Of a stretch of DNA of 64,000 nucleotides, positions 11,229-28,516 are shown piece after piece (the stretch's first letter is position 1; each line of letters begins with the position of its first letter). Position numbers and translations under genes: made by a program. Under the pieces are notes generated by a model. The model was not told the DNA's origin. It did not search any database and saw only the letters and a list, made by a program, of their open reading frames with translations. The stretch comes from Longimicrobiales bacterium. GTDB lineage: Bacteria > Gemmatimonadota > Gemmatimonadetes > Longimicrobiales > Gaopeijiaceae. The DNA is taken from the NCBI GenBank assembly GCA_965223235.1, contig CBDCVV010000016.1, positions 92,108 to 156,107 of the forward strand. Direction: 5' to 3'.

Positions 11229-12044
11229 TTAGGGACCCTCGGCCGATCCTCGCCTCGCGATCTCCAGTAGTTCATCGGAGTCGATCTCTCCGACGAGTGC
11301 TTGCTCTACGGACGGGGACGCCCACGTGACGACTGGCATGACCGGAGCGGTGCCCGGGCGATGCGGGGAGATCGCAGGTAACCGCGACGTCGAACCCTCT
11401 CTTGGTACCACGTAATGGGAGATCTCGAGATCTCCCTTCTTGTACACGATCATCGCTCCCCGCCGCCCCTCGAGTAGACAGATTTCGGCTCGCTCGAGGC
11501 TGAGGCCGGCGAGTTGGATCGGTCGAATTCGGAAGCCGAGCTCACGTTCGAGGAATCGAGTCACTTGGGCCGGATCGTTCGTGACGATGTGATCCTCACC
11601 GACCGCTCGTCGGAGGTAGTCTTCGACGAAGACATCGCCCGGAGCGTACGACGTGGGTGCCGGGGCGCGCACGATCGTGATACCGGCTACCACAACCGCT
11701 ATCGCCACAATCAAAGCCACCCATTCGCGCCGTCTATGTACCGGCAGCGGCGATTGGATCCGATCCACTTCCTGAGGGGCATCGATCCGGAAACGAGAGG
11801 CCGACTCTTGCTGGACACCACCCGGCTGCCGAAGGGCGGCCTCGATCTCGCCTCGAAGTGCCTTCGGCGCTTCCACATCCTTCGCGCGATCGTACGCATC
11901 CAGAAGGCGCCTGTCTTGGCGGAAGTACGACACGCAGCACTCGCAGGTGGCCAAATGCTCCCTGGCTGCCTGCAAGTCGTCTCCCACGATCCGCAGTCTT
12001 TCTGGCGGCCAAAGGAGTTGGCGAGCTCGCTGGCAATCCATCAC
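11229..12044 (-). CDS. putative zf-HC2 anti-sigma factor (single-pass membrane)
   Basis: 271 aa. The N-terminal C..A...L......L......HL..C..C pattern (MMDCQRARQLL...HLATCECC) is followed by one TM helix (WVALIVAIAVVVAGITIV). Confidence 0.6.
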   Translation of the reverse strand: MMDCQRARQLLWPPERLRIVGDDLQAAREHLATCECCVSYFRQDRRLLDAYDRAKDVEAPKALRGEIEAALRQPGGVQQESASRFRIDAPQEVDRIQSPLPVHRRREWVALIVAIAVVVAGITIVRAPAPTSYAPGDVFVEDYLRRAVGEDHIVTNDPAQVTRFLERELGFRIRPIQLAGLSLERAEICLLEGRRGAMIVYKKGDLEISHYVVPREGSTSRLPAISPHRPGTAPVMPVVTWASPSVEQALVGEIDSDELLEIARRGSAEGP

Positions 12045-18597: not shown

Positions 18598-21243
18598 CTA
18601 CTCCGATCGCAGCGCAACAACGGGCGATACCCGGACGGCCCGAGCGGCGGGCAGCACCGAGGCCGCGATCGCCGACGCTCCCAGCGCAAGGGATCCGAAC
18701 AGCACCGTAACCACCTCGGCCGCTCCGACACCATAGACGAACGATTCGATGACCCGGGTCGAACCCCACACACCCACGAGCCCGAACCCGATGCCCCAGA
18801 TGGCCAGCCGCACACCACGCTTCAACACCAAGCTCACGATCCCACCCCCAGCTGCTCCGAGTGCCATCCGAATTCCGAGCTCGCGGACGCGCCGAGAGAC
18901 GAAGTAGGAAACCGTACCGTAGATCCCTGCCGCCGCCAGAAAGAGCGCCGCGATCGCGAATACGGCGACCAGCGTGGTATAGAAGCGTCGTTGGGCCAAG
19001 GCCCGATCGACCCGCTCCGCCATAGTGCGTATCGCACCGGGGGGCTGCGTCGGGTCGACGGCCGCGACCGCCCCACGGACGCCATTGACGATCTCGACCG
19101 GATCCACGTCTGCTCCTATCACAACGAAGCCGGAACCACTCCAACCCTGGTTGAACGGGAGATAGGCTTCGCTGAGCGGCTCCTGCTCCATACCCCACTG
19201 ACGGACGGTGGCGACCACTCCGACCACTGTTAGCCACGGTGGGTTCGAGTCGAAGCCGAACTGCTTGCCGATGGGGTCCTCTCCCGGCCATACGTCCTCA
19301 GCCATCTGCTGGTTGATCAGGACACCCACGGCACCCGTGGCCGTGTCCGCTGCCTCCAGCAAGCGTCCCCTGAGGAGCGGGATACCCATGGCTTGGAAGT
19401 AGTCACCGAATACGCTCGAGACCTCGACGAGCGGCCCCTCACTACTACTGGCTCGAGTAGGGGCGTCCGCGAGCTGGACATTGCCGTTCGACCCTCCGGC
19501 TAGAGGCAGCTTGCTTACGAAGCCGACCTCTCGTACACCCGGAATCGCGTCGACCTCGTCAAGGATCTCCTCGTAGAACCGCTGCATGGCTCCACTGGCC
19601 TCGTACCGAGGGCCCGAGGCGTTGAGGGCCATCGTCAAGACCCCCCGAGTAGAGAAGCCCTGCTCCTGCCCCCTGACGTTCGCGTAGCTGCTGACGAGCA
19701 CCCCAGCGGCGTTGACCAAGATCAAGCCGACCGCGATCTGCACGACGATGAAGGTGTCACGCATGCGCTCCTTCTTCGGAGCCAGCGTCGAATGGCCGCC
19801 CTCCTTCACTCCGGAGGCGACGTCGGTCCGGGAGGCCAGGAGGGCAGGTAGGACGCCGAATACCAGCGACGTCGCTACGGAGGCGGCCACCGCAAAGAGT
19901 AGAACCGTTCCGTCGACACCGATCTGGTCGACACGGGGCACTGTAGGTGGGAGCAGGGATCGGAGTCGGTCAACGGCAAAGAAGGCCACTCCGATCCCAC
20001 CGACTGCCGCGATCGCCGAGAGAACAACGCTTTCGGCGAAGAGGAGACGGACCAGAGTGCGCCGGGAAGCCCCGAGGGCCGTCCGCACCGCCAGCTCACC
20101 CTCTCGCCCGGCTGCACGCGCCAGCAGAAGTCCGGCGACATTCGCACATGCGATGATGAGAACGAGAGCGGCAGCGGCCAGCAGCGTTCTGAACTGGGTG
20201 CCAGCCTCCCCATATCGATACTCGTGCGCGGTCTGCACGAGTGCGCCCCAGCCGCTGTTCGTTTCCGGATACTCGGCTTCGAGCTCAGCGGCGATGCGTT
20301 GCATATCCGCTCGCCCTGACTCAACGGGCACTCCGTCGCGGAGTCGAGCGATGACCGGATAGCTGTGGTTACCACGGCCCCCGTCGAAGAGCTCGTTGGG
20401 AAAGGGAGTGAAGAGCTCGTGGCTTCTGAGGCTACCCCAAGGCGAGGGGACGTCGAACCCCTCCGGCATGACACCCACGACCTCGTGCACCTCGCCGTTG
20501 ATCTCGAGACCTTCGCCGAGGGCGCCGGGCCGACTGTCGAAGAGTCGCCGCCAAAGAGCGTGGGTCAGAACAACAACCCTCGCTCCGTTCTGATCAGACT
20601 CCAACAGCGGCCGCCCATGGAGAGGCGGCACCTCCAGGACGTCGAAGGCGCTCCCGGTCACGGCGGTTCCATATACACGCTCGGCTTTATCGAGTCCGGT
20701 GAGATTGAAGAACCCGGGTCGAAGTGCAGCCATGCCTTCGAAGCTCCGCTGGCGTTCGACGAAGTCGAGGTAGTCCGGTCCGGATGCAGGGCCGCAGCAC
20801 CCGAAGGCCCCGAGCCCCATGACGACGACGATCTCCTCCGACTCTGGAAGGTCCAGAGGGTCGAGGAAGACCGCCTTGTACACACCGAAGAGTGAGGTCG
20901 TGAAGCCGACACCGACGGCGAGTGTCACCGCGATTGTGGCTGAAAATCCAGGGCGCCTAAGAAGCGCCCGTAGTGCTAGTCGAAGATCGTTTCCCCACAT
21001 GGCTATCCCCTCCCCCATCGGTTCTTCGCGCCGGAAGGCGTCGGCCTGTTCCGAGCACCAGGCGCGGAAGGCGGGCGCGAGCGACCGCACCGCCTGAGCG
21101 CGGTACCAAGCCCGCGCGGCGTGCTTACCGCGATGGGCGTGTCGCCGCCGGTACTCTTCCTCCGCGTCACCTCGGACTGCGTCGCGGTCCTCTGGGGCGA
21201 GGAATCTCCCAAGTAGCCACACCCACACCCTTCCCGGCTTCAC
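18598..21243 (-). CDS. duplicated FtsX/MacB-like ABC permease (ADOP-type)
   Basis: 881 aa from a GTG start with a GGGAGG RBS. Two MacB-periplasmic-plus-FtsX modules. The N-terminal leader (LAPEDRDAVRGDAEEEY) is typical of PadR-linked permeases. Confidence 0.85.
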   Translation of the reverse strand: MKPGRVWVWLLGRFLAPEDRDAVRGDAEEEYRRRHAHRGKHAARAWYRAQAVRSLAPAFRAWCSEQADAFRREEPMGEGIAMWGNDLRLALRALLRRPGFSATIAVTLAVGVGFTTSLFGVYKAVFLDPLDLPESEEIVVVMGLGAFGCCGPASGPDYLDFVERQRSFEGMAALRPGFFNLTGLDKAERVYGTAVTGSAFDVLEVPPLHGRPLLESDQNGARVVVLTHALWRRLFDSRPGALGEGLEINGEVHEVVGVMPEGFDVPSPWGSLRSHELFTPFPNELFDGGRGNHSYPVIARLRDGVPVESGRADMQRIAAELEAEYPETNSGWGALVQTAHEYRYGEAGTQFRTLLAAAALVLIIACANVAGLLLARAAGREGELAVRTALGASRRTLVRLLFAESVVLSAIAAVGGIGVAFFAVDRLRSLLPPTVPRVDQIGVDGTVLLFAVAASVATSLVFGVLPALLASRTDVASGVKEGGHSTLAPKKERMRDTFIVVQIAVGLILVNAAGVLVSSYANVRGQEQGFSTRGVLTMALNASGPRYEASGAMQRFYEEILDEVDAIPGVREVGFVSKLPLAGGSNGNVQLADAPTRASSSEGPLVEVSSVFGDYFQAMGIPLLRGRLLEAADTATGAVGVLINQQMAEDVWPGEDPIGKQFGFDSNPPWLTVVGVVATVRQWGMEQEPLSEAYLPFNQGWSGSGFVVIGADVDPVEIVNGVRGAVAAVDPTQPPGAIRTMAERVDRALAQRRFYTTLVAVFAIAALFLAAAGIYGTVSYFVSRRVRELGIRMALGAAGGGIVSLVLKRGVRLAIWGIGFGLVGVWGSTRVIESFVYGVGAAEVVTVLFGSLALGASAIAASVLPAARAVRVSPVVALRSE

Positions 21244-21323
21244 CCGTACCTCCCGTCGGCATCATATGCGACACAGTGTATCATATACATCTAGACACGA
21301 CAATCGTCGATTGGGTTGCGAGC

Positions 21324-22001
21324 GGGTAGGCGGAGGGTCACCGAGTGGGCGCCTCGGCTCGAACCCTCGACCTAGGTGCGGGGGTTCTCTCGACGGGCAG
21401 GTATGCAAAACCCTCTCAGATCTTGCGCGATCTGAAGGGGCTTCAGCGGAATGCGAGGGATGGAGCTGCGGTCGGCTACGCCGATCCTCGCTCGTCTCGG
21501 CGAGGGGCGGGTAGGCGGAGGTCACCGAGTGGGCGCCTCGGCTCGAACCCCTCGACCAGGGTGCGGGGGTTCACCGACCTCCGGGCGGGCGTGCGAAAGC
21601 CCCTCAAGGCCAGAGACCTGAGGGGCTTTGACGGAGCGCGAGGGATGGAGCTGCGGTCGGCTACGCCGATCCTCGCTCGTCTCGGCGAGGGGCGGGTAGG
21701 TGGAGGTCACCGAGTGGGCGCCTCGGCTCGAACCCCTCGACCTAGGTGCGGGGGTTCTTTTGAATACCTGACGGTTATGTGAAAACCCCTCAGGCCAGAG
21801 ACCTGAGGGGCTTTTACGGAGCGCGAGGGATGGAGCTGCGGTCGGCTACGCCGATCCTCGCTCGTCTCGGCGAGGGGTGGGTAGGCGGAGGTCACCGAGT
21901 GGGCGCCTCGGCTCGAACCCCTCGACCAGGGTGCGGGGGTTCACCGACTTCCGGGCGGGCGTGCGAAGGCCCCTCAAGGCCAGAGACTTGAGGGGCTTTT
22001 A
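21324..22001 (-). repeat. tandem array of about 3.7 x 185-bp tRNA-Ser(CGA) echo units
   Basis: gggtaggcggagg recurs at 21324, 21509, 21694 and 21879. The tRNA 3' 15-mer cggagcgcgagggat recurs at 21447 (degenerate), 21632 and 21817, and the real gene starts at 22002. Confidence 0.9.
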
Positions 22002-22084
22002 CGGAGCGCGAGGGATTCGAACCCCCAAGTCCTTTCGGACGCTCGCTTTCGAGGCGAGTGCATTAGCCATTCTGCCAGCGCTCC
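22002..22084 (-). tRNA. tRNA-Ser (anticodon CGA)
   Basis: Manual cloverleaf: GGAGCGC acceptor, anticodon arm CUCGC-CUCGAAA-GCGAG, long variable arm GUCC-GAAA-GGAC, T arm GGGGG-UUCGAAU-CCCUC. No encoded CCA. Confidence 0.9.
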
Positions 22085-22161
22085 TGATACCGTAGCGCGG
22101 GCGCGGTGGGGATCGCGAATCCACGCGGTGCGGATAGTTAGGCCGGTGTGGAGGTTGATTG

Positions 22162-22231
22162 CGCGGCTCGAACCTGCGGTTCGAACCGGAACCACATACT
22201 GACTTTGTCTAATATCGGGGTGCCCGGATTC
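22162..22231 (-). repeat. echo of the tRNA-Pro(CGG) 3' end plus its downstream flank
   Basis: 22162-22231 parallels 22293-22362. The shared sequence is cggctcgaacctgcggttcgaacc...ctgact...taatatcggggtgcccggattc. Identity to the gene ends after ggattc, inside the T-loop. Confidence 0.8.
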
Positions 22232-22345
22232 ATCTCGCTCACGCTCGATGGTCTCGCGGTAACCAGTCTGACTGAAGCCGATGAAATGGGCCGCTCGGCT
22301 CGAACCTGCGGTTCGAACCCGGATCCACTTGCTGACTCTTCCTAA

Positions 22346-22419
22346 TCGGGGTGCCCGGATTCGAACCGGGGACCTCTGCGACCCGAACGCAGCGCTCTAC
22401 CGGACTGAGCCACACCCCG
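22346..22419 (-). tRNA. tRNA-Pro (anticodon CGG)
   Basis: CGGGGUG acceptor, anticodon arm CUGCG-UUCGGGU-CGCAG, T arm CCCGG-UUCGAAU-CCGGG. 74 nt. Confidence 0.9.
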
Positions 22420-22439
22420 GACTACTCGGGTACCTGCAC

Positions 22440-22633
22440 CGACGGGGTGGGATTGAGCTGCGGGCGGCCATGCCGCCCTCGCTCCACTCGCGAGTCACCA
22501 CAGCAGGTACTCGCGTAGACCACCTGTCGCTCGAGTCGAACTCACGCGGCATCCTGCTTCGCAGTCTGCGTGGGTTCGAACGGGAGGGTCGTCGTGACTC
22601 TCTCGTCCACATTCTTCAGTGACTCTTTCAGAA
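22440..22633 (-). repeat. tRNA-Ser(GGA) echo unit
   Basis: gacggggtgggatt at 22441-22454 equals the 3' end of the gene at 22634. It is followed by gagctgcg, a 7-bp hairpin gggcggc-cat-gccgccc and ctcgc-tccactc-gcgag. An inverted T-arm-like gcgtgggttcgaac lies further on. Confidence 0.8.
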
Positions 22634-22716
22634 CGGACGGGGTGGGATTCGAACCCACGCGGACAATGTCCACACGATTTCCAATCGTGCGCCTTAAGCC
22701 ACTCGGCCACCCGTCC
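22634..22716 (-). tRNA. tRNA-Ser (anticodon GGA)
   Basis: GGACGGG acceptor, D-loop GCCGAGUGG, anticodon arm CACGA-UUGGAAA-UCGUG, long variable arm, T arm GUGGG-UUCGAAU-CCCAC. Confidence 0.9.
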
Positions 22717-22754
22717 AAGATGCGGCCGCAGGACTTCTGGCCGACTCTCCCGTT

Positions 22755-22936
22755 GAGGGAGTGGGATGGGCTCGCTGCGCGAGCCGCGTCGCGGAGCACC
22801 AGGGTGGTGCTTCGCGTGTTCGGGCGGGCCGCTCGGCTCAAACCCACTGCCGTCCTCGCTTCGCGAGTCCGGGTGGGTTCGAACTGGATGGTCTTGCGAC
22901 CGAGTTCGTCCACATGGCTTCTCGCGATGCGTTCAA
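22755..22936 (-). repeat. tRNA-Ser(GCU) echo unit
   Basis: gagggagtgggat at 22755-22767 equals the 3' end of the gene at 22937. It is followed by a 7-bp hairpin ggctcgc-tgc-gcgagcc. The unit also contains gccgctcggctcaaaccc, ctcgc-ttc-gcgag, gggtgggttcgaac and tcgtccacat, shared with the Ser(GGA) unit. Confidence 0.8.
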
Positions 22937-23020
22937 CGGAGGGAGTGGGATTCGAACCCACGCGGTGCAAGCACCAACGCCTTAGCAGGGCGCCGCCTTA
23001 AGCCACTCGGCCATCCCTCC
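22937..23020 (-). tRNA. tRNA-Ser (anticodon GCU)
   Basis: GGAGGGA acceptor, anticodon arm GCGCC-CUGCUAA-GGCGU, long variable arm, T arm GUGGG-UUCGAAU-CCCAC. Confidence 0.9.
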
Positions 23021-23030
23021 CTTCGAGCTA

Positions 23031-23103
23031 TAGCCCTGCTAGGGCTCGAACCTAGACTCTTCGGAACCAGAATCCGACGTGTTGCCAGTTACACCACAGG
23101 GCT
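23031..23103 (-). tRNA. tRNA-Gln (anticodon CUG)
   Basis: AGCCCUG acceptor, anticodon arm UCGGA-UUCUGGU-UCCGA, T arm CUAGG-UUCGAGC-CCUAG. 73 nt. Confidence 0.88.
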
Positions 23104-23120
23104 AAGAAAACAAAACCGAG

Positions 23121-23193
23121 AGCCACCAGTCGGACTTGAACCGACGACCCCGTCATTACGAGTGACGTGCTCTACCAGCTGAGCTATGGTGGC
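23121..23193 (-). tRNA. tRNA-Thr (anticodon CGU)
   Basis: GCCACCA acceptor, anticodon arm CGUCA-CUCGUAA-UGACG, T arm GUCGG-UUCAAGU-CCGAC. Confidence 0.9.
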
Positions 23194-23202
23194 AACCAGA
23201 AG

Positions 23203-23275
23203 TGGAGCCGAGGGGAATCGAACCCCTGACCTCAGCGTTGCGAACGCTGCGCTCTCCCAACTGAGCTACGGCCCC
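23203..23275 (-). tRNA. tRNA-Ala (anticodon CGC)
   Basis: GGGGCCG acceptor with G3:U70, anticodon arm CAGCG-UUCGCAA-CGCUG, T arm AGGGG-UUCGAUU-CCCCU. Confidence 0.9.
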
Positions 23276-23345
23276 GTACACGCCGCCCGTAGGGGCGGGC
23301 CGAGGGACGTGAGCGGTCCATAGCCCACAGAACTCGGCAGATTCA

Positions 23346-23419
<74 letters not shown>

Positions 23420-23443
23420 GACACCCGACTGTCAGGTCCTTCA

Positions 23444-23517
23444 TGCGCCCGGGAGGACTCGAACCCCCAACCTCCTGATCCGTAGTCAGGCACTCTATCC
23501 AATTGAGCTACGGGCGC
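23444..23517 (-). tRNA. tRNA-Arg (anticodon ACG)
   Basis: GCGCCCG acceptor, anticodon arm CCUGA-CUACGGA-UCAGG, T arm GGGGG-UUCGAGU-CCUCC. Confidence 0.9.
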
Positions 23518-23551
23518 TTTAACGCGAGCTCCGCCTTTGGACTCACGCCCC

Positions 23552-23682
23552 CTCTTGAGGGGTGAGACCCGAGTGCGTCGCAAGGCGGGCAAGGCGACGC
23601 GATCGAGGCGTACTCTTGTACGCCGCAGTGAGCGGAGACCGTAGCCCAACGCCGCGAGGCGCCGGAGATCACCCCTCAAGAG
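23552..23682 (-). other. 131-nt multi-stem structured spacer closed by 14-bp terminal inverted repeats
   Basis: ctcttgaggggtga (23552-23565) is the reverse complement of tcacccctcaagag (23669-23682). Internal 7-bp stems are gcgtcgc/gcgacgc and ggcgtac/gtacgcc. The element abuts the 3' end of tRNA-Leu(GAG). Confidence 0.6.
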
Positions 23683-23766
23683 TGCCCACGACAGGACTCG
23701 AACCTGTACGCCGTTTCCGGCACTGGTCCCTCAAACCAGCCTGTCTACCAATTTCAGCACGTGGGC
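23683..23766 (-). tRNA. tRNA-Leu (anticodon GAG)
   Basis: GCCCACG acceptor, anticodon arm CUGGU-UUGAGGG-ACCAG, long variable arm, T arm ACAGG-UUCGAGU-CCUGU. Confidence 0.9.
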
Positions 23767-23796
23767 TTATGAACTAACCGCCCGGGTGGGCGACAA

Positions 23797-23881
23797 TGCT
23801 CGAGGAGGGACTCGAACCCTCACGGGGTTAACCCCCACAGGGTCCTGAACCCTGCGCGTCTACCAATTCCGCCACCCGAGC
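23797..23881 (-). tRNA. tRNA-Leu (anticodon CAG)
   Basis: GCUCGGG acceptor, anticodon arm CAGGG-UUCAGGA-CCCUG, long variable arm, T arm GAGGG-UUCGAGU-CCCUC. Confidence 0.9.
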
Positions 23882-23923
23882 CCGCGATCGGTACTTCGGG
23901 CTTGCGGCGCCCGGGTTCCGACA

Positions 23924-23996
<73 letters not shown>

Positions 23997-24056
23997 CTCC
24001 ACACGACCTAGGGAGCCGCCTCCAGGGAGACGACTCCGTTTGTCAAATAACCTGAG

Positions 24057-24130
24057 CGGGGCTGACGAGACTCGAACTCGCGACCTCCGGTGTGACAGAC
24101 CGGCACTCTAACCGACTGAGCTACAGCCCC
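24057..24130 (-). tRNA. tRNA-Asp (anticodon GUC)
   Basis: GGGGCUG acceptor, anticodon arm CCGGU-CUGUCAC-ACCGG, T arm GCGAG-UUCGAGU-CUCGU. Confidence 0.9.
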
Positions 24131-24173
24131 AGGTTGTAAACAGCTGCCCTGCTTTTACTGCGGTCCTGCAAAA

Positions 24174-24245
24174 TACCCCGACGGGGAATTGAACCCCGAT
24201 TGCCAGGTTGAAAACCTGGTGTCCTAACCATTAGACGACCGGGGC
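24174..24245 (-). tRNA. tRNA-Glu (anticodon UUC)
   Basis: GCCCCGG acceptor (two G-U pairs), anticodon arm CCAGG-UUUUCAA-CCUGG, T arm CGGGG-UUCAAUU-CCCCG. Confidence 0.85.
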
Positions 24246-24261
24246 TCCTATTCCCGACGTA

Positions 24262-24334
24262 CAGGCCCGGAGGGACTCGAACCCCCAACCCCCGGTTTTG
24301 GAGACCGGTGCTCTACCAGTTGAGCTACGGACCT
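24262..24334 (-). tRNA. tRNA-Trp (anticodon CCA)
   Basis: AGGUCCG acceptor, anticodon arm CCGGU-CUCCAAA-ACCGG, T arm GGGGG-UUCGAGU-CCCUC. Confidence 0.9.
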
Positions 24335-24378
24335 CTAGCTCTCTTTTACCACATCCGCCGCGAGCGACGGTTTCCTCA

Positions 24379-24451
24379 TGGCCAGGGGCGGAATCGAACC
24401 GCCGACACCATGATTTTCAGTCATGTGCTCTACCAACTGAGCTACCTGGCC
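24379..24451 (-). tRNA. tRNA-Phe (anticodon GAA)
   Basis: GGCCAGG acceptor, anticodon arm CAUGA-CUGAAAA-UCAUG, T arm GGCGG-UUCGAUU-CCGCC. Confidence 0.9.
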
Positions 24452-24456
24452 CAGAC

Positions 24457-24491
24457 AAAAAACCCGCCCGGACCCTTTCGGCTCGGACGGG
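24457..24491 (-). terminator. rho-independent terminator inside the tRNA cluster
   Basis: Minus-strand read: CCCGUCCGAGCC-GAAA-GGGUCCGGGCGGG followed by UUUUUU, immediately upstream of tRNA-Phe. Confidence 0.7.
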
Positions 24492-24617
24492 AGTCAGCTC
24501 CGGAGAGATCGGTCTTACCGATCCTCCGCTCCCGCCCGCTGCCGCGGGCTCCACGAGTCGGAAACGATCCAGAGATCGGTACTTTGCACACCCGCTCCTT
24601 CAACGTTGCCGAACGTG
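24492..24617 (-). ncRNA. candidate small RNA between two terminator-like hairpins (unknown family)
   Basis: About 125 nt, bounded by the hairpin at 24618-24641 and the terminator at 24457-24491. Internal hairpins are cgatc-tctg-gatcg and gatcggt-aag-accgatc. No credible ORF and no match to SRP, 6S or tmRNA motifs that I can recall. Confidence 0.3.
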
Positions 24618-24641
24618 GGAAACGCCGCCCTTCGGCGGCGC
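24618..24641 (-). terminator. terminator-like hairpin just after tRNA-fMet
   Basis: Minus-strand read: CGCCGCC-GAAG-GGCGGCG followed by UUUCCC. 7-bp GC stem with a short U run. Confidence 0.45.
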
Positions 24642-24653
24642 TTCACAAACAAA

Positions 24654-24727
<74 letters not shown>

Positions 24728-24738
24728 ACAGGACGGAG

Positions 24739-24768
24739 AAGTTAGTCGAATCGCGGAGACGTGGTCAA
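24739..24768 (-). promoter_or_regulatory. candidate sigma70-type promoter for tRNA-fMet
   Basis: Minus-strand read: TTGACC, an 18-nt spacer, then TAACTT. The -10 hexamer ends 11 nt before the mature tRNA 5' end. Confidence 0.4.
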
Positions 24769-24837
24769 CCCGTTTCTTACGGCGGAAAGGAGCGCACATT
24801 GTACCCTGTCCGACTCCCACTAGGAGGGTGGTGACCG

Positions 24838-26073
24838 ATGCTTAGCTCCGTCTTCATGGATTTGGCCACGGCGCTCGGGTTGGGTCTGCTGGTGGGTCTT
24901 CAGAAGGAGCGGGCCGAGTCACCCCTGGCGGGCCTGCGCACGTTTGCGCTGGTTACCCTGAGCGGTTCTATAGCCGCGATCGTCGGAGAGGCCACGACGC
25001 CGTGGGTTGTTGTTGGTGGATTGCTGACAACGAGTGCGCTCATGGTGACGGGGAACGCCGTCCTTATGAAGGCCGAGGGCACGGACGCGGGCCAGACGAC
25101 GGAGGCCGCCGTGATCGTGATGTATCTGGTCGGCGCACTTGTGGTCGTCGCGCCCCGCGAGGTGGCGATTGTGTGCGGGGCGACCACCGCGATGTTGCTC
25201 CACCTTCGGGAAGAACTGAGAACGTGGGTGGATCGACTCAGCGATCGCGACGTGCGGGCGATCATGCAATTCGCCGTGATCTCGCTCGTGATCTTGCCAG
25301 TACTTCCCGATCAGGCGTACGGCCCTTACGAAGTGATCAACCCACGTCAGGTCTGGTGGATGGTTGTTCTGATCGTGGGGCTTAACCTCGCTGGCTACGG
25401 AGCTTTCCGACTCATGGGCGCGCGTGCGGGCACGGCCCTAGCAGGCGTGCTAGGCGGCGTGATATCGAGTACCGCGACGACTGTTTCCTATGCGCGACAG
25501 ACTAAGGCCGAGGGAGGGATGGAGGGCACCGCCGCCCTCGTAGTTTGGATCGCGTCTGGAGTCGTGTTCGTGCGTCTCTTGGTCGAGATCGGGGCCGTGG
25601 CTCCCGACTTTCTCCCGGTCGCGGCGGGCCCGTTGGTTGTGATGTTGGTGGTCTTCGCAGTGTTGGCTGGGTTGGTATGGCGGTCCGCGACGACCCCGGG
25701 TGAGATCCCTCTAGAGCCCGGAAACCCGACAGAGTTACGCCCCGCCATCTTCTTTGGCGCTTTGTACGCGTTCGTCCTCTTCATCGTGGCGGCCGGTCAG
25801 GACCTCATGGGAGACGCCGGGTTGTACGCGGCGGCCGCGGTCTCGGGGCTTACCGATGTGGATGCCATCACGTTATCCACGTCACGTCTCGTCGATACCG
25901 ACCGACTCGACCCCGATGTCGGGTGGCGCCTCGTCCTGATCGCGGTTCTTTCGAACCTGGTGTTCAAGCTCGGTCTGGCCGCGACCCTGGGCAGCCGGGA
26001 CTTTGCGAAGAAGCTCGGAAGGCTGGGTGCTGTGGCGCTCGCAGCGGGAGTGGGGATCTTGCTCCTCTGGTGA
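24838..26073 (+). CDS. MgtC/SapB-family plus DUF4010-type integral membrane protein
   Basis: 411 aa, polytopic. The N-terminus LGLGLLVGLQKERAESPLAGLRTFALVTLSG is typical of MgtC/DUF4010 proteins. GGAGGG RBS. Confidence 0.7.
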   Translation: MLSSVFMDLATALGLGLLVGLQKERAESPLAGLRTFALVTLSGSIAAIVGEATTPWVVVGGLLTTSALMVTGNAVLMKAEGTDAGQTTEAAVIVMYLVGALVVVAPREVAIVCGATTAMLLHLREELRTWVDRLSDRDVRAIMQFAVISLVILPVLPDQAYGPYEVINPRQVWWMVVLIVGLNLAGYGAFRLMGARAGTALAGVLGGVISSTATTVSYARQTKAEGGMEGTAALVVWIASGVVFVRLLVEIGAVAPDFLPVAAGPLVVMLVVFAVLAGLVWRSATTPGEIPLEPGNPTELRPAIFFGALYAFVLFIVAAGQDLMGDAGLYAAAAVSGLTDVDAITLSTSRLVDTDRLDPDVGWRLVLIAVLSNLVFKLGLAATLGSRDFAKKLGRLGAVALAAGVGILLLW

Positions 26074-26080
26074 GACGGTG

Positions 26081-26358
26081 GCCCAGCCGCATGCTGCGGC
26101 TGGGACCACCTATCGGGACGGCCGGATGTTGCTGCACGAGGCTCGGGCAGACGGTGGTTGAGAACATGGGCGTGCACCGATCCGGCGGTAGAAACAAGAA
26201 AGGCCCCAGCCGCATGCTGCGGCTGGGACCATCAATCGGGACGGCCGGATGTTGCTGCACGAGGCTCGGGCAGACGGTGGTTGAGAACATGGGCGTGCAC
26301 CGATCCGGCCGTGGAAACAAGAAAGGCCCCAGCCGCATGCTGCGGCTGGGACCACCCA
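26081..26358 (-). repeat. tandem array of about 2.3 x 123-bp tRNA-Pro(GGG) echo units
   Basis: tcgggacggccggat occurs at 26113 and 26236, and at 26359 in the real gene. The hairpin cccagccgca-tgc-tgcggctggg occurs at 26082, 26205 and 26328. Identity to the gene stops after ggat, inside the T-loop. Confidence 0.9.
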
Positions 26359-26432
26359 TCGGGACGGCCGGATTCGAACCGGCGACCCCCTGAACCCCAT
26401 TCAGGTGCGCTACCGGGCTGCGCCACGTCCCG
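26359..26432 (-). tRNA. tRNA-Pro (anticodon GGG)
   Basis: CGGGACG acceptor, anticodon arm CCUGA-AUGGGGU-UCAGG, T arm GCCGG-UUCGAAU-CCGGC. 74 nt. Confidence 0.9.
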
Positions 26433-26633
26433 TCTTCCGCGAACCGCCGGAAGGGACGACAAGCTACCTAATCAGGTAGATGTCGGGAACCATCGGGCCG
26501 CAGTGCTCTCTGGGTCCATATGGATGGCGGAGCTCCGCGGAGTCGGAGCAACCACGAGCTCGCCGGACACAGTCCTAGGGGGTAGAGAAGCACTCACCGC
26601 AGCTGGCGATCCCCTCAGTCCGGAGTCGACCGT

Positions 26634-27857
26634 ATGGTCACCGACCGCGTCTTGGTTTGCCTCGCCCTGTTCCTCTTGGTGTGCGCTTGTGGAGACGCCG
26701 ACTCGCTGGCAAGCGATTCCGACCTTGCCGGGACGGATGGGTCACCCCTTGAGTCGAAGATCGTCGAGAACGCCGGTTCGGGTGCTTGGGGGGCAGATGA
26801 TGCCTGGCGCTTGGAGGAGGTCATGGCCGCTGGGACTGGCTCGGGGTCAGAGAGGCCGTTTGGGGATGTTTCCGGGCTCGACGTGGATGAGGCCGGCAAC
26901 GTGTACGTGGCGGACAAGCTCGCGCAGGAGATCCGTGTCTTTGATGGGGCCGGGAACCCGCTTCGAACGATCGGCCGGGCAGGTTCGGGGCCGGGGGAGT
27001 TTGGGGGAAACATCGGCGGCGTCTTCGTTATTGGCCAAGAGTTGATTGTTCCTGATGTCGCTAATCAGCGGGTATCACGCTTCGCGTTGTCCGGGACCTT
27101 CATCGATTCTCGCCGAGTGAGTGCCGAGGCCGGGGTTCCGATTCGGTGGGATGTCGCGGACGGCCGCTTGGTGGCTCAACGCCGCAGGGTGGTGCCGGGA
27201 GATCGTGATGTGGTCGAGGGCGACCGGATCGTATCGCTGACTCCTCCTGAAGACACACTGGTCCTACTGCCGCCTGGCCAGGCCGTCCAGATCACCGGGG
27301 AGGGTCCGATCATCCGTCAATTCCATCCTGAACCGGTCTGGGACTCGACGTACGACGGGCGGCTCGTCATTGCCATGACAGACGAGTGGCGCTTCGTAGT
27401 TCGCGACGCCGGTGGCCGCGTGGAATGGGTGGCGACTCGACCGATGGAGACCGCGCGGACATCCTCCGCAGATCGTGACGCCGTGCGTACATCGCTGAGA
27501 GAGATGTACACACGACAAGGCATCCCGGCTGCGGCCAGGGAAGCCGTGATCGATCGCATGGAGTTCGCCGACCGACTTCCCGCTCTGACGTCGGTGATCT
27601 TCGGTCCCAATGATTCGCTGTGGGTCCGCCACTTCGTCGCGCCCTCGACTTCCGAAAGAGGACGCACACGAGTCCTGGTGGAGGAGATGGGGTCCACGGA
27701 TTGGAGTGTGTTCGACGCGACAGGCCACTACTTAGGGGACGTGTCGTTCCCCACAGACTTCACTCCCGTACAAGTTGTGGATGACCGCTTCTACGGAGTT
27801 GTGTTCAACGAGCACGACGTCCAATCCGTTCGCAGCTACCGCGTGGTCACCGAGTAG
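26634..27857 (+). CDS. beta-propeller (NHL/6-bladed-like) lipoprotein
   Basis: 407 aa with lipobox LLVCACG. GSGPGEFG-type NHL-like repeat signatures. Confidence 0.55.
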   Translation: MVTDRVLVCLALFLLVCACGDADSLASDSDLAGTDGSPLESKIVENAGSGAWGADDAWRLEEVMAAGTGSGSERPFGDVSGLDVDEAGNVYVADKLAQEIRVFDGAGNPLRTIGRAGSGPGEFGGNIGGVFVIGQELIVPDVANQRVSRFALSGTFIDSRRVSAEAGVPIRWDVADGRLVAQRRRVVPGDRDVVEGDRIVSLTPPEDTLVLLPPGQAVQITGEGPIIRQFHPEPVWDSTYDGRLVIAMTDEWRFVVRDAGGRVEWVATRPMETARTSSADRDAVRTSLREMYTRQGIPAAAREAVIDRMEFADRLPALTSVIFGPNDSLWVRHFVAPSTSERGRTRVLVEEMGSTDWSVFDATGHYLGDVSFPTDFTPVQVVDDRFYGVVFNEHDVQSVRSYRVVTE

Positions 27858-27916
27858 CCGTTCCCTGACATACCGCGGTACCTTGACTGCTGAGAGCAGA
27901 GGAAATCGGAGGGAGG

Positions 27917-28516
27917 ATGTTGGTGTTTCGTGCACAACTGGAGCGAGTGGCGTCCGTAGTGCTCGTGGCGATTGTGGGGGCCGCGTGTGCCGATCAGCCG
28001 AATGAACAGGCGACAGGGACGGAGGATGCCGCCCCTGTGGTCGAGCTATCGGGGGCTGAGGCCGCGTTCGCCACGGCTACCGACCTCGGTATCCGGAATG
28101 CCCGACACCCTATGGACGATGTCGTCACTGCCGGACAGCCGACGGAGGAACAGATGGTTGCTCTGGTGGAGTCGGGTGTTCGTCACGCGATCTCGCTGCG
28201 GCCAGCGTCTGAAGATGGAGCGGGGTGGGAGGAGGCCCACGCAGAGGGAGCCGGGTACGACTTCGCTCGACTCCCGATCTCGGGTGCGGAGTCGCTGACG
28301 CGCGAGACGGTCGAGGAGTTCGCGGCCCTCCTCGACGAGGCGGGGGGCGAGCCGACTCTCTTGTACTGCGCGAGCAGTAATCGGGTTGGCGCGCTGGTCG
28401 CTCTTAAGGCGGCTTGGATCGATGGAGCAGATCCGCAGGATGCGTTAGAGCAGGGGCTCTCGGCCGGGCTCACGCGGCTGGAAGCGCCGGTCCGTGGCCT
28501 CCTGGGAATCGACTAG
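27917..28516 (+). CDS. secreted DUF442/phosphatase-like (sulfur-transferase-associated) domain protein
   Basis: 199 aa with a signal/lipobox (VAIVGAACAD). The active-site-like loop YCASSNRVG resembles the CxxxxR loop of DUF442 proteins. Confidence 0.5.
   Translation: MLVFRAQLERVASVVLVAIVGAACADQPNEQATGTEDAAPVVELSGAEAAFATATDLGIRNARHPMDDVVTAGQPTEEQMVALVESGVRHAISLRPASEDGAGWEEAHAEGAGYDFARLPISGAESLTRETVEEFAALLDEAGGEPTLLYCASSNRVGALVALKAAWIDGADPQDALEQGLSAGLTRLEAPVRGLLGID

Follow-up and report, generated by a model that had tools for sequence, protein, structure and literature searches.

A conserved structured insert in the T-loop of duplicated tRNA 3' ends of Gemmatimonadota

Repeats lying next to tRNA genes are usually put down to the scars of integrases. 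In the archaeal Thermoproteales, non-canonical introns occupy tRNA positions that include the T-loop, and transposition of these introns among tRNA genes has been proposed. Models of tRNA gene disruption have also been published (PMC3293823; PMC4033280). Here we analyse 64,000 nucleotides of a Longimicrobiales bacterium (contig CBDCVV010000016.1; this whole stretch is hereafter the window), in which the DNA 3' of tRNA-Ser(GGA) contains a short copy of the tRNA's own 3' end (the echo) and, next to it, a non-coding insert of 82 nt (the core) that belongs to a widespread family. The core family resembles target-specific non-autonomous elements, archaeal mobile tRNA introns and integrase-made tRNA fragments, but it has the complete set of defining features of none of them.

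Like the archaeal introns, the cores are related short intervening sequences found at defined positions, the T-loop included, in many tRNA genes of one lineage. However, the archaeal introns are recognized by a bulge-helix-bulge cut by EndA, a geometry that the core does not possess, and most core copies lie in truncated pseudogene fragments rather than in functional genes. To our knowledge, bacteria have no EndA bulge-helix-bulge pathway. With the direct repeats left by integrases, the units that carry the core share an exact copy of a tRNA 3' end downstream of the intact gene (in the window and at ~60 other loci), an arrangement in tandem arrays, and fragments that start in the T-loop or the anticodon loop. 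They differ in the small size of the 'islands', only 60-250 nt, and in that the fragment has its T-loop interrupted by an insert that is both conserved and structured. The DNA bounded by the repeats contains no integrase gene, since the units span 130-250 nt and hold no open reading frame (ORF), and the only integrase-like ORF, at the locus labelled L024 in our set, lies between fragments that are devoid of the core.

Two other kinds of intervening sequence invite comparison. Bacterial group I introns sit in the anticodon loops of tRNA genes (PMC3984707; bioRxiv 10.1101/2020.01.27.920355) and are likewise seamless and share a conserved RNA fold, but they are at least 200 nt long, have a P1-P9 core and a terminal G, and reside in the anticodon loop; the core gives no Rfam group I match. 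A group I or group II catalytic core is also not apparent in 82-95 nt that form two helical domains, end in C or A and have no match in Rfam. The intervening sequences of 23S rRNA are, like the core, extra stem-loop modules of ~100 nt that occur sporadically at fixed helices of a stable RNA gene; they are, however, simple extended stems removed by RNase III from functional genes, whereas the core is a two-domain junction whose hosts are mostly dead fragments.

The interrupted unit 3' of tRNA-Ser(GGA)

Read in the direction of the tRNA, the gene and its downstream unit consist of the following parts (MFE, minimum free energy; R1, the covariance model described below).

22633-22717, minus strand: intact tRNA-Ser(GGA) with T-loop TTCGAAT (ARAGORN; Rfam tRNA match at 22634-22716, 61.3 bits)
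22582-22632, minus strand: spacer S, from the tRNA 3' end to hairpin P0 (sequence reading)
22568-22581, minus strand: 5' arm of P0, GTTCGAACCCACGC (inverted repeats; paired with 22536-22548 in the MFE fold)
22549-22567, minus strand: apex of P0, a CUGC-GAA-GCAG triloop hairpin (sequence and MFE fold)
22536-22548, minus strand: 3' arm of P0, here called x, CGCGTGAGTTCGA against CGCGTGGGTTCGA in the tRNA (sequence comparison)
22454-22535, minus strand: type A core insert, 82 nt (full-length match to R1, 1-84)
22526-22535 paired with 22485-22496, minus strand: core helix P2 (family fold)
22481-22484 (GAGC) paired with 22455-22458 (GCUC), minus strand: core helix P4 (family fold)
22462-22478, minus strand: core hairpin P3 (family fold)
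22441-22453, minus strand: echo E, an exact copy of T60, the T-stem 3' strand and most of the acceptor 3' strand, with A59 at 22454

A preliminary description of this DNA, made from its letters alone, had linked the unit to tRNA-Ser(GGA) by a repeat of the tRNA 3' end at 22441-22454, and this link holds: GACGGGGTGGGATT is present exactly twice in the window, here and at 22636-22649, where 0.04 copies would be expected in 64 kb and none of 100 shuffles contained two or more. The junction reported next to the echo was likewise recovered, as GAGCTGCG (minus strand CGCAGCTC) directly adjoins it and is common, as CGCAGCTCNATCCC, to the three Ser(CGA) units further along the window, and the hairpin GGGCGGC-CAT-GCCGCCC was located at 22462-22478. 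An inverted copy of half of the T arm had also been proposed. It is present as GCGTGGGTTCGAA at 22568-22580, an inverted match, perfect over 13 nt and extending to 17 nt if one mismatch is allowed, that covers the variable-arm end, the T-stem 5' strand and the T-loop of tRNA-Ser(GGA).

The preliminary description went astray over the segment CTCGC...GCGAG. The segment exists (about 22479-22495, plus strand), but in the family fold its two sides do not form a hairpin with each other; on the minus strand they are there the 3' strand of P2 and the 5' strand of P4. Nor does this stem come from tRNA-Ser(CGA), as had been suggested, since it is part of a near-invariant piece of the family core, ..CGCGAG-NN-GAGCGAGG.., which also accompanies tRNAs for Pro, Cys and Arg, and further Ser tRNAs, in over 100 additional genomes and metagenome contigs and whose bases pair elsewhere in the family fold. 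What had been missed is a degenerate copy of the 5' half of the T arm, GCGTGAGTTCGA (22536-22548), immediately upstream of the core. This piece, x, is a direct copy of the variable-arm end, the T-stem 5' strand and TTCGA of the tRNA, and analogous x pieces are present at other loci; the 'inverted T-arm half' of the preliminary description is the 5' arm of hairpin P0, which pairs with it. The MFE fold of the unit recovers P0, P4 and P3, and a long P0 hairpin is also found in other Ser units (L053, L155, L194 and L134), where its arms vary in step with the T stem of the neighbouring tRNA.

The presence of x upstream and of the echo downstream means that a T arm has been split at position 58/59 by a discrete insert. 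The Ser(GGA) unit is thus a truncated, degenerate duplicate of the tRNA 3' region, lying just downstream of the intact gene, and the T-loop of this duplicate is interrupted between A58 and A59 (GGTTCGA/ATCC) by the 82-nt non-coding core. The echo is the 3' flank of the insertion site, that is, the remainder of the T-loop, the T-stem 3' strand and the acceptor 3' strand.

Fold, range and insertion sites of the core family

In 5' to 3' order the core consists of NN-CGAG-(CGG or GCG), a variable region, (CCG or CGC)-CGAG-NN-GAGC-GA-GG(A), a stem of 4-7 bp with a GNA triloop, and CC-GCA-GCUC-N, and its length across the family is 82-95 nt. These elements form two domains, the first being the long helix P2, with a tandem G.A motif (CGAG opposite CGAG) and a variable apex, and the second the P4-P3 hairpin, made up of GAGC, a bulged-A stem with the GNA triloop, GCA and GCUC. 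We tested the fold (P2, P4 and P3) on 73 non-redundant cores from other genomes. Paired cells made up 90.3% (77.5% in column shuffles), 131 cells had changed on both sides (41 in shuffles, with none of 500 reaching 131), and the covariation score was 0.264 against at most 0.093 for slid partners; RNAalifold independently gives the same three helices. P4 is invariant, so its pairing lies beyond the reach of covariation. The counts of G.U versus A.C pairs do not decide the strand, the reverse strand folding slightly better in the variable parts, and the strand was accordingly chosen from the tandem G.A and GNA motifs. Pairing of the variable P2 apex with the flanks, in the manner of a guide or of exon- and intron-binding sites, was considered and rejected, as duplex energies were no better for cognate flanks than with non-cognate flanks.

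The same 73 cores, none of them from the window, were used to build the covariance model R1, which matches the Ser(GGA) core at 22454-22535 with 58.9 bits (E 9e-10). The similarity among the Ser-linked units that the preliminary description had reported is significant for Ser(GGA) and for Ser(CGA) (E ~1e-12) and weaker for Ser(GCU) (E 0.016). The Ser(GCU) and Pro(CGG) cores belong to a variant, type B, in which a single 8-bp hairpin, again with CGAG opposite CGAG, replaces the P4-P3 domain; type B is also present at L007, L029, L045, L046, L081 and L084.

A scan of 185,579 species genomes with the pattern GTTCGANNCGAG-N55-80-CGCAGCTCNATCC, for which we estimate ~0.4 chance matches, returned 101 stretches, and 67 of the 80 loci with titles listed are labelled Gemmatimonadota (Gemmatimonadales or Longimicrobiales). 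R1 confirms 138 copies in the genome loci that were fetched and finds none in 12 loci labelled outside Gemmatimonadota, which are chance matches to the pattern. The exception is L046 (CAVXJZ010000002.1), a 945-kb contig labelled Solirubrobacterales (Actinomycetota) that carries six true copies together with a Gemmatimonadota-like tRNA cluster; this mismatch could reflect an error of binning or labelling, or horizontal transfer. A metagenome scan with internal core sequence only, and hence without selection on the flanks, added at least 120 contigs, bringing the family to more than 250 copies, essentially all of them from Gemmatimonadota. Units are kept at the same tRNAs (Pro, Cys, Arg-CCG and Ser) in both Gemmatimonadales and Longimicrobiales, and truncated and degenerate copies are common across loci. 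Among viral contigs the strict pattern had no matches and a looser one had eight at chance level, with no tRNAs nearby and no real copy among them. A search of 19000-28000 against Rfam 15 (cmscan, E<=1) returned only tRNAs and weak chance matches overlapping them; within 22440-22632 it gave nothing but the tail of an sX4 match (E 0.3), and no ribozyme or intron. We found neither an Rfam family nor, in full-text literature searches, a description of such an element, and to that extent the core family appears previously uncatalogued.

At ~60 loci with an intact upstream tRNA (Pro CGG/GGG/TGG, Cys GCA, Arg CCG/CCT or Ser GCT/TGA/GGA/CGA), the sequence 3' of the core is the 3' end of that very tRNA and the sequence 5' of the core always ends in GGTTCGA, so that deleting the core joins GGTTCGA to ATCC and restores a normal T-loop. 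Over 224 copies the flanks are TTCGA/ATCC in 74% and CCTGA/ATGG in 8.5% (19/224), the remainder being mostly T-loop variants and a few boundaries mis-parsed by the script. There is no target duplication, as removal of the core restores the host tRNA sequence seamlessly, and there are no terminal inverted repeats.

Besides truncated duplicates, the core occupies several other contexts. At L011 it lies at 58/59 in three closely packed, otherwise complete tRNA genes, one Asn-GTT and two with anticodon CGG, which become valid for ARAGORN only after the core is removed and then have 7-bp acceptor stems (perfect in the CGG pair, with one G.U in Asn); on the uncut sequence ARAGORN mis-called two of them with wrong 3' ends and missed the third. 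The surrounding region (3993-5900 of L011, on Longimicrobiales chromosome OZ250165.1) is a dense array of ~18 atypical tRNA genes, among them an Ile-AAT and one of undetermined identity. At L014, L042, L064 and L088 the core, likewise inserted seamlessly, follows the whole 5' body of a tRNA-Pro and precedes a 3' end that is preserved for 9-11 nt and then degenerates; an intact tRNA-Pro lies further downstream in each case. Of the metagenome copies, which were sampled without regard to their flanks, ~15% are at position 31/32, in the anticodon arm of tRNA-Pro(GGG) (CACCTGA/core/ATGGGGTTCAGG); these are seamless too and lie in 5' fragments (positions 1 to ~45) repeated in tandem upstream of an intact tRNA-Pro(GGG), at these loci:

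L224, 0-470: Pro(GGG) 5' fragments with the core at 31/32
L204, minus strand, 150-630: the same
L108, 9860-10110: the same
L141, minus strand, 11560-11830: the same

All but one of ~280 copies have the orientation of the tRNA. The exception, at L038 (6630-6760), is an inverted core at T-loop position 54/55 of a Ser(CGA) 3' fragment, whose insertion site, read on the opposite strand, is again TCGA^A; the corresponding place in the window is occupied by cores in sense orientation. At L042 (minus strand, 20-130) a degenerate core follows Ser(GGA), and L064 (minus strand, 1720-1780) reads GGTTCGA-GC-ATCCCA at the same place, which may represent a near-precise loss of the core with two bases left behind. 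At L024 (minus strand, 100-2700), three core-less 3' halves of tRNA-Arg(CCG), starting in the anticodon loop, bracket a gene for an AAA/DUF4143 ATPase and an ORF that resembles Phage_integrase weakly (E 5.6e-4, short of the Pfam cut-off). They look like nested islets of the integrase type, at a tRNA that also carries core-bearing fragments. The tRNA fragments therefore exist independently of the core, as is also seen in the core-less Pro(GGG) units of the window, and the core is a discrete insert with exact boundaries and a conserved fold in several unrelated contexts.

Competing explanations for the core

All of these features lead us to favour, with about even confidence, a reading in which the core is a mobile, non-coding insert, specific for site and orientation, that is preserved in expendable fragments of tRNA genes. 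Such an insert would enter YYSGA^AT without duplicating its target and would persist where the interruption of a tRNA is harmless, namely in truncated duplicates beside the real gene, in fragments of the integrase type and in accessory tRNA arrays. Tandem copies would arise by unequal recombination between the repeated segments of echo plus spacer. Their layout fits duplicated segments that take in one end of a tRNA gene, with the intact gene standing first when the overlap is at the 3' end and last when it is at the 5' end. In many units a strong terminator hairpin stands between the core and the tRNA, immediately behind the latter, so co-transcription is unlikely to be required.

As to mechanism, our guess is that the insert might move as single-stranded DNA, mobilised in trans, like the non-autonomous members of IS200/IS605, because it inserts seamlessly 3' of a pentanucleotide, has a strict strand bias and carries a GAGC, 5' of a bulged hairpin, that would pair with the terminal GCUC. 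The non-autonomous IS200/IS605 elements, which are akin to palindrome-associated transposable elements and miniature inverted-repeat transposable elements (MITEs), are likewise small and non-coding with strand-specific hairpins. They too insert 3' of a fixed pentanucleotide without target duplication or terminal inverted repeats (as in our 224 copies), and they too have a tetranucleotide 5' of a bulged hairpin that is complementary to the 3'-terminal tetranucleotide (here GAGC, P3, GCA and GCUC, with P4 invariant). In contrast to these elements, the core has no identifiable 5' guide, and no linker separates its left boundary from the first helix; its two hairpins are not near-identical, its ends pair together at the base of P2, and neither TnpA nor TnpB was found in neighbourhoods of ~8 kb. 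By analogy, the core could also be likened to the omega RNA of TnpB, in that a structured part is followed by target-derived 3' sequence, in the manner of scaffold plus guide, with TTCGA as the would-be target-adjacent motif, but it is much shorter than known scaffolds and its variable apex shows no extra complementarity to the flanks. It is not a classical MITE either, as it starts with NNCGAG and ends with GCAGCUCN, ends that are not inverted repeats, and its flanks are unduplicated. Readings of the core boundaries as kink-turn, bulge-helix-bulge, Helitron or IS91 were rejected on inspection of the sequence.

Several observations weigh against a mobile insert. No transposase, integrase or reverse transcriptase that could act as the mobilising enzyme recurs within ~8 kb of the copies. 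Copies within one genome are divergent, whereas those at the same tRNA are similar across genera, with compensatory changes, a pattern more suggestive of long vertical descent, with the structure under constraint, than of recent transposition. The first helix of the core, unlike that of IS608-type left ends, is not set apart from the insertion point by a linker, and P4, being invariant, draws no support from covariation. Finally, an insert does not explain the origin of the tRNA-fragment duplicates themselves. Clustering of 1097 neighbouring ORFs yielded host families only (aminotransferase, SMC-like, SNF symporter, kinases and ADOP) and no associated protein, and in orthologous pairs the identity of the core (0.78) was close to that of the spacer (0.82), with no clear sign of replacement.

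A possible, though unlikely, alternative is that the core is a structured small RNA useful to the host, co-transcribed with the tRNA cluster and released by the enzymes of tRNA processing, so that the tandem units would be an array of a multi-copy RNA gene and the echo (with the anti-echo of many units) would supply a tRNA-like minihelix or a processing stem. The conserved fold with its many compensatory changes would suit such an RNA, as would the retention of units at the same tRNAs in both orders, the near-uniform orientation, and the presence of the tandem G.A and the C(GNA)G triloops on the tRNA-sense strand only. The class I 5' segment, moreover, pairs with the echo and varies with the tRNA, being GCGCCCGGAT beside Pro and GCCGCCCGG beside Cys. 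On the other hand, terminator hairpins precede the core in many units, truncated or degenerate copies are frequent, the core also lies within full-length tRNA genes, in anticodon arms and once in inverted orientation, and the counts of G.U versus A.C do not favour the sense strand. More broadly, we regard it as rather improbable that the core represents a new class of bacterial RNA-level element, either a self-processing T-loop intervening sequence that relies on a host ligase or a structured RNA from tRNA operons, of which the arrays of tRNA fragments could be the genomic footprint; we know of no precedent in bacteria for either.

Still less probable is an intron of the T-loop at 58/59, removed by host nucleases or through self-cleavage followed by ligation (by RtcB, for example), with the copies in fragments as its relics. 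The three genes of L011, which have the core exactly at 58/59 and are valid cloverleaves once it is removed, are what such an intron would look like, and T-loop positions 59-60 are structurally tolerant. In the modelled fold both ends of the insert would lie at helix bases, adjacent to each other, in a three-way junction with the T stem. However, perfect exons are confined to L011, where two of the three cores deviate from the consensus, and at L014, L042, L064 and L088 the 3' exon is degenerate while an intact gene stands alongside. The inverted copy of L038 cannot be an intron of that tRNA, and the core has neither group I/II features nor an Rfam ribozyme or intron match. The bulge-helix-bulge motif, with its 3-nt bulges and 4-bp helix, is also absent: the junction strands are TTCGA (5 nt) and N-AT (~3 nt), and no 4-bp helix forms between the 5' end of the insert and the 3' exon, where P2 and P4 abut instead.

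It is similarly doubtful that there is no mobile core at all and that the units are scars (attL/attR) of tyrosine integrases at tRNA 3' ends, amplified by unequal crossing-over, with the core as a conserved end of the element that evolved in place. Direct repeats of a tRNA 3' end are a classic signature of integrase integration, and both the core-less Arg halves beside the weak Phage_integrase match of L024 and the core-less Pro(GGG) echo units of the window agree with it, but the core lies inside the T-loop, between what would be the core binding arms, and also at the anticodon-arm site, inverted at 54/55 and in full-length tRNAs, the integrase islet of L024 is bounded by core-less fragments, and no integrase recurs near the units. 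Integrase scars alone account for the echoes and not for an insert that splits the T-loop and is found in anticodon arms and whole tRNA genes. A phage tRNA array was rejected, as megablast against phages gave isolated tRNA matches only and the flanking genes are ordinary chromosomal ones.

The tRNA cluster, its other units and their significance

The window has a G+C content of ~63% and is part of a bacterial chromosome. Its tRNA cluster aligns at 70-81% identity over 1-2 kb, in synteny, with many Gemmatimonadota contigs and is therefore the organism's own conserved cluster rather than a phage array. The genes around it encode threonine synthase (thrC), homoserine kinase (thrB), an ADOP-type duplicated permease and an MgtC/DUF4010 protein. 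The best relatives of the permease are from Gemmatimonadota (55-79% identity); it was rejected as an anchor of synteny, its homologues being paralogues in unrelated contexts. The cluster and the other units are as follows.

22002-24728, minus strand: cluster of 17 tRNA genes (ARAGORN)
26359-26432, minus strand: tRNA-Pro(GGG), apart from the 17-gene cluster
22752-22936, minus strand: Ser(GCU) unit, with type B core at 22767-22837 and echo at 22755-22767 (R1 20.9 bits, E 0.016)
22085-22345, minus strand: two Pro(CGG) units, the first with type B core at 22230-22299 and echo at 22215-22229, the second degenerate
21447-22001, minus strand: three tandem 185-nt Ser(CGA) units, each with hairpin, x, type A core and echo (direct repeat; echo copies)
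21462-21542, 21647-21727 and 21832-21912, minus strand: the Ser(CGA) cores (R1 71-73 bits, E ~1e-12)
21322-21446, minus strand: fourth Ser(CGA) unit, truncated inside core P2 and abutting the putative promoter region of the ADOP permease
18598-21243, minus strand: ADOP permease gene, 881 aa, GTG start
26113-26358, minus strand: two Pro(GGG) echo units without core, each with a terminator-like hairpin, an anti-echo, a 53-nt middle and an echo

Units are thus present 3' of each of the last four tRNAs of the cluster on the tRNA strand: one after Ser-GCU, one after Ser-GGA, two after Pro-CGG, and three full tandem units and a truncated fourth after Ser-CGA. These four tRNAs all have the T-loop TTCGAAT. 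The complete units end in a copy of the 3' end of their own tRNA, from T-loop A59/T60 to about the discriminator, and the degenerate second Pro(CGG) unit has no echo; the Pro(CGG) core is matched by R1 with 24.3 bits (E 0.004). A 19-nt motif, GGTTYGAGCCGAGSSGCCC, is common to these units, that of Ser(GCU) included, and has six copies in the window, all of them here, against 0.15 expected. The Pro(GGG) units are 123 nt long and in tandem, with the anti-echo GCCGGAT, an exact echo ATCCGGCCGTCCCGA and a third terminator copy after them, and similar units are present at L108, L141, L204 and L224.

Some features of the region stand apart from the units. The gaps 3' of tRNA-Met (24452-24652, minus strand, 201 nt) and of tRNA-Leu(GAG) (23518-23681, minus strand, 164 nt) are unusually long and contain several G+C-rich hairpins with GNA-type loops, and they match neither echo nor core. 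At 21243-21330 (minus strand), the broken-off fourth Ser(CGA) unit gives way to a stretch rich in A+T, tgtcgtgtctagatgtatatgatacactgtgtcgcatatgatg, directly upstream of the permease start; this stretch is a candidate promoter or operator. Other loci, too, commonly have a last unit that is truncated distally.

The only interruptions that bacterial tRNA genes are known to have are group I introns in the anticodon loop. A conserved, covarying module of 82-95 nt, unseen by tRNA finders and by Rfam, now appears at a single, precisely defined site of the T-loop in tRNA-derived sequences that number in the hundreds and span a whole phylum. The model R1 lets annotators spot interrupted tRNA genes such as the three of L011, which standard tools mis-call or miss. 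Should the core act as RNA, it would define either a novel class of RNA or another way of processing tRNAs; should it be mobile DNA instead, it would add a novel non-coding element with target specificity and could mark hidden arrays of tRNA pseudogenes in Gemmatimonadota.

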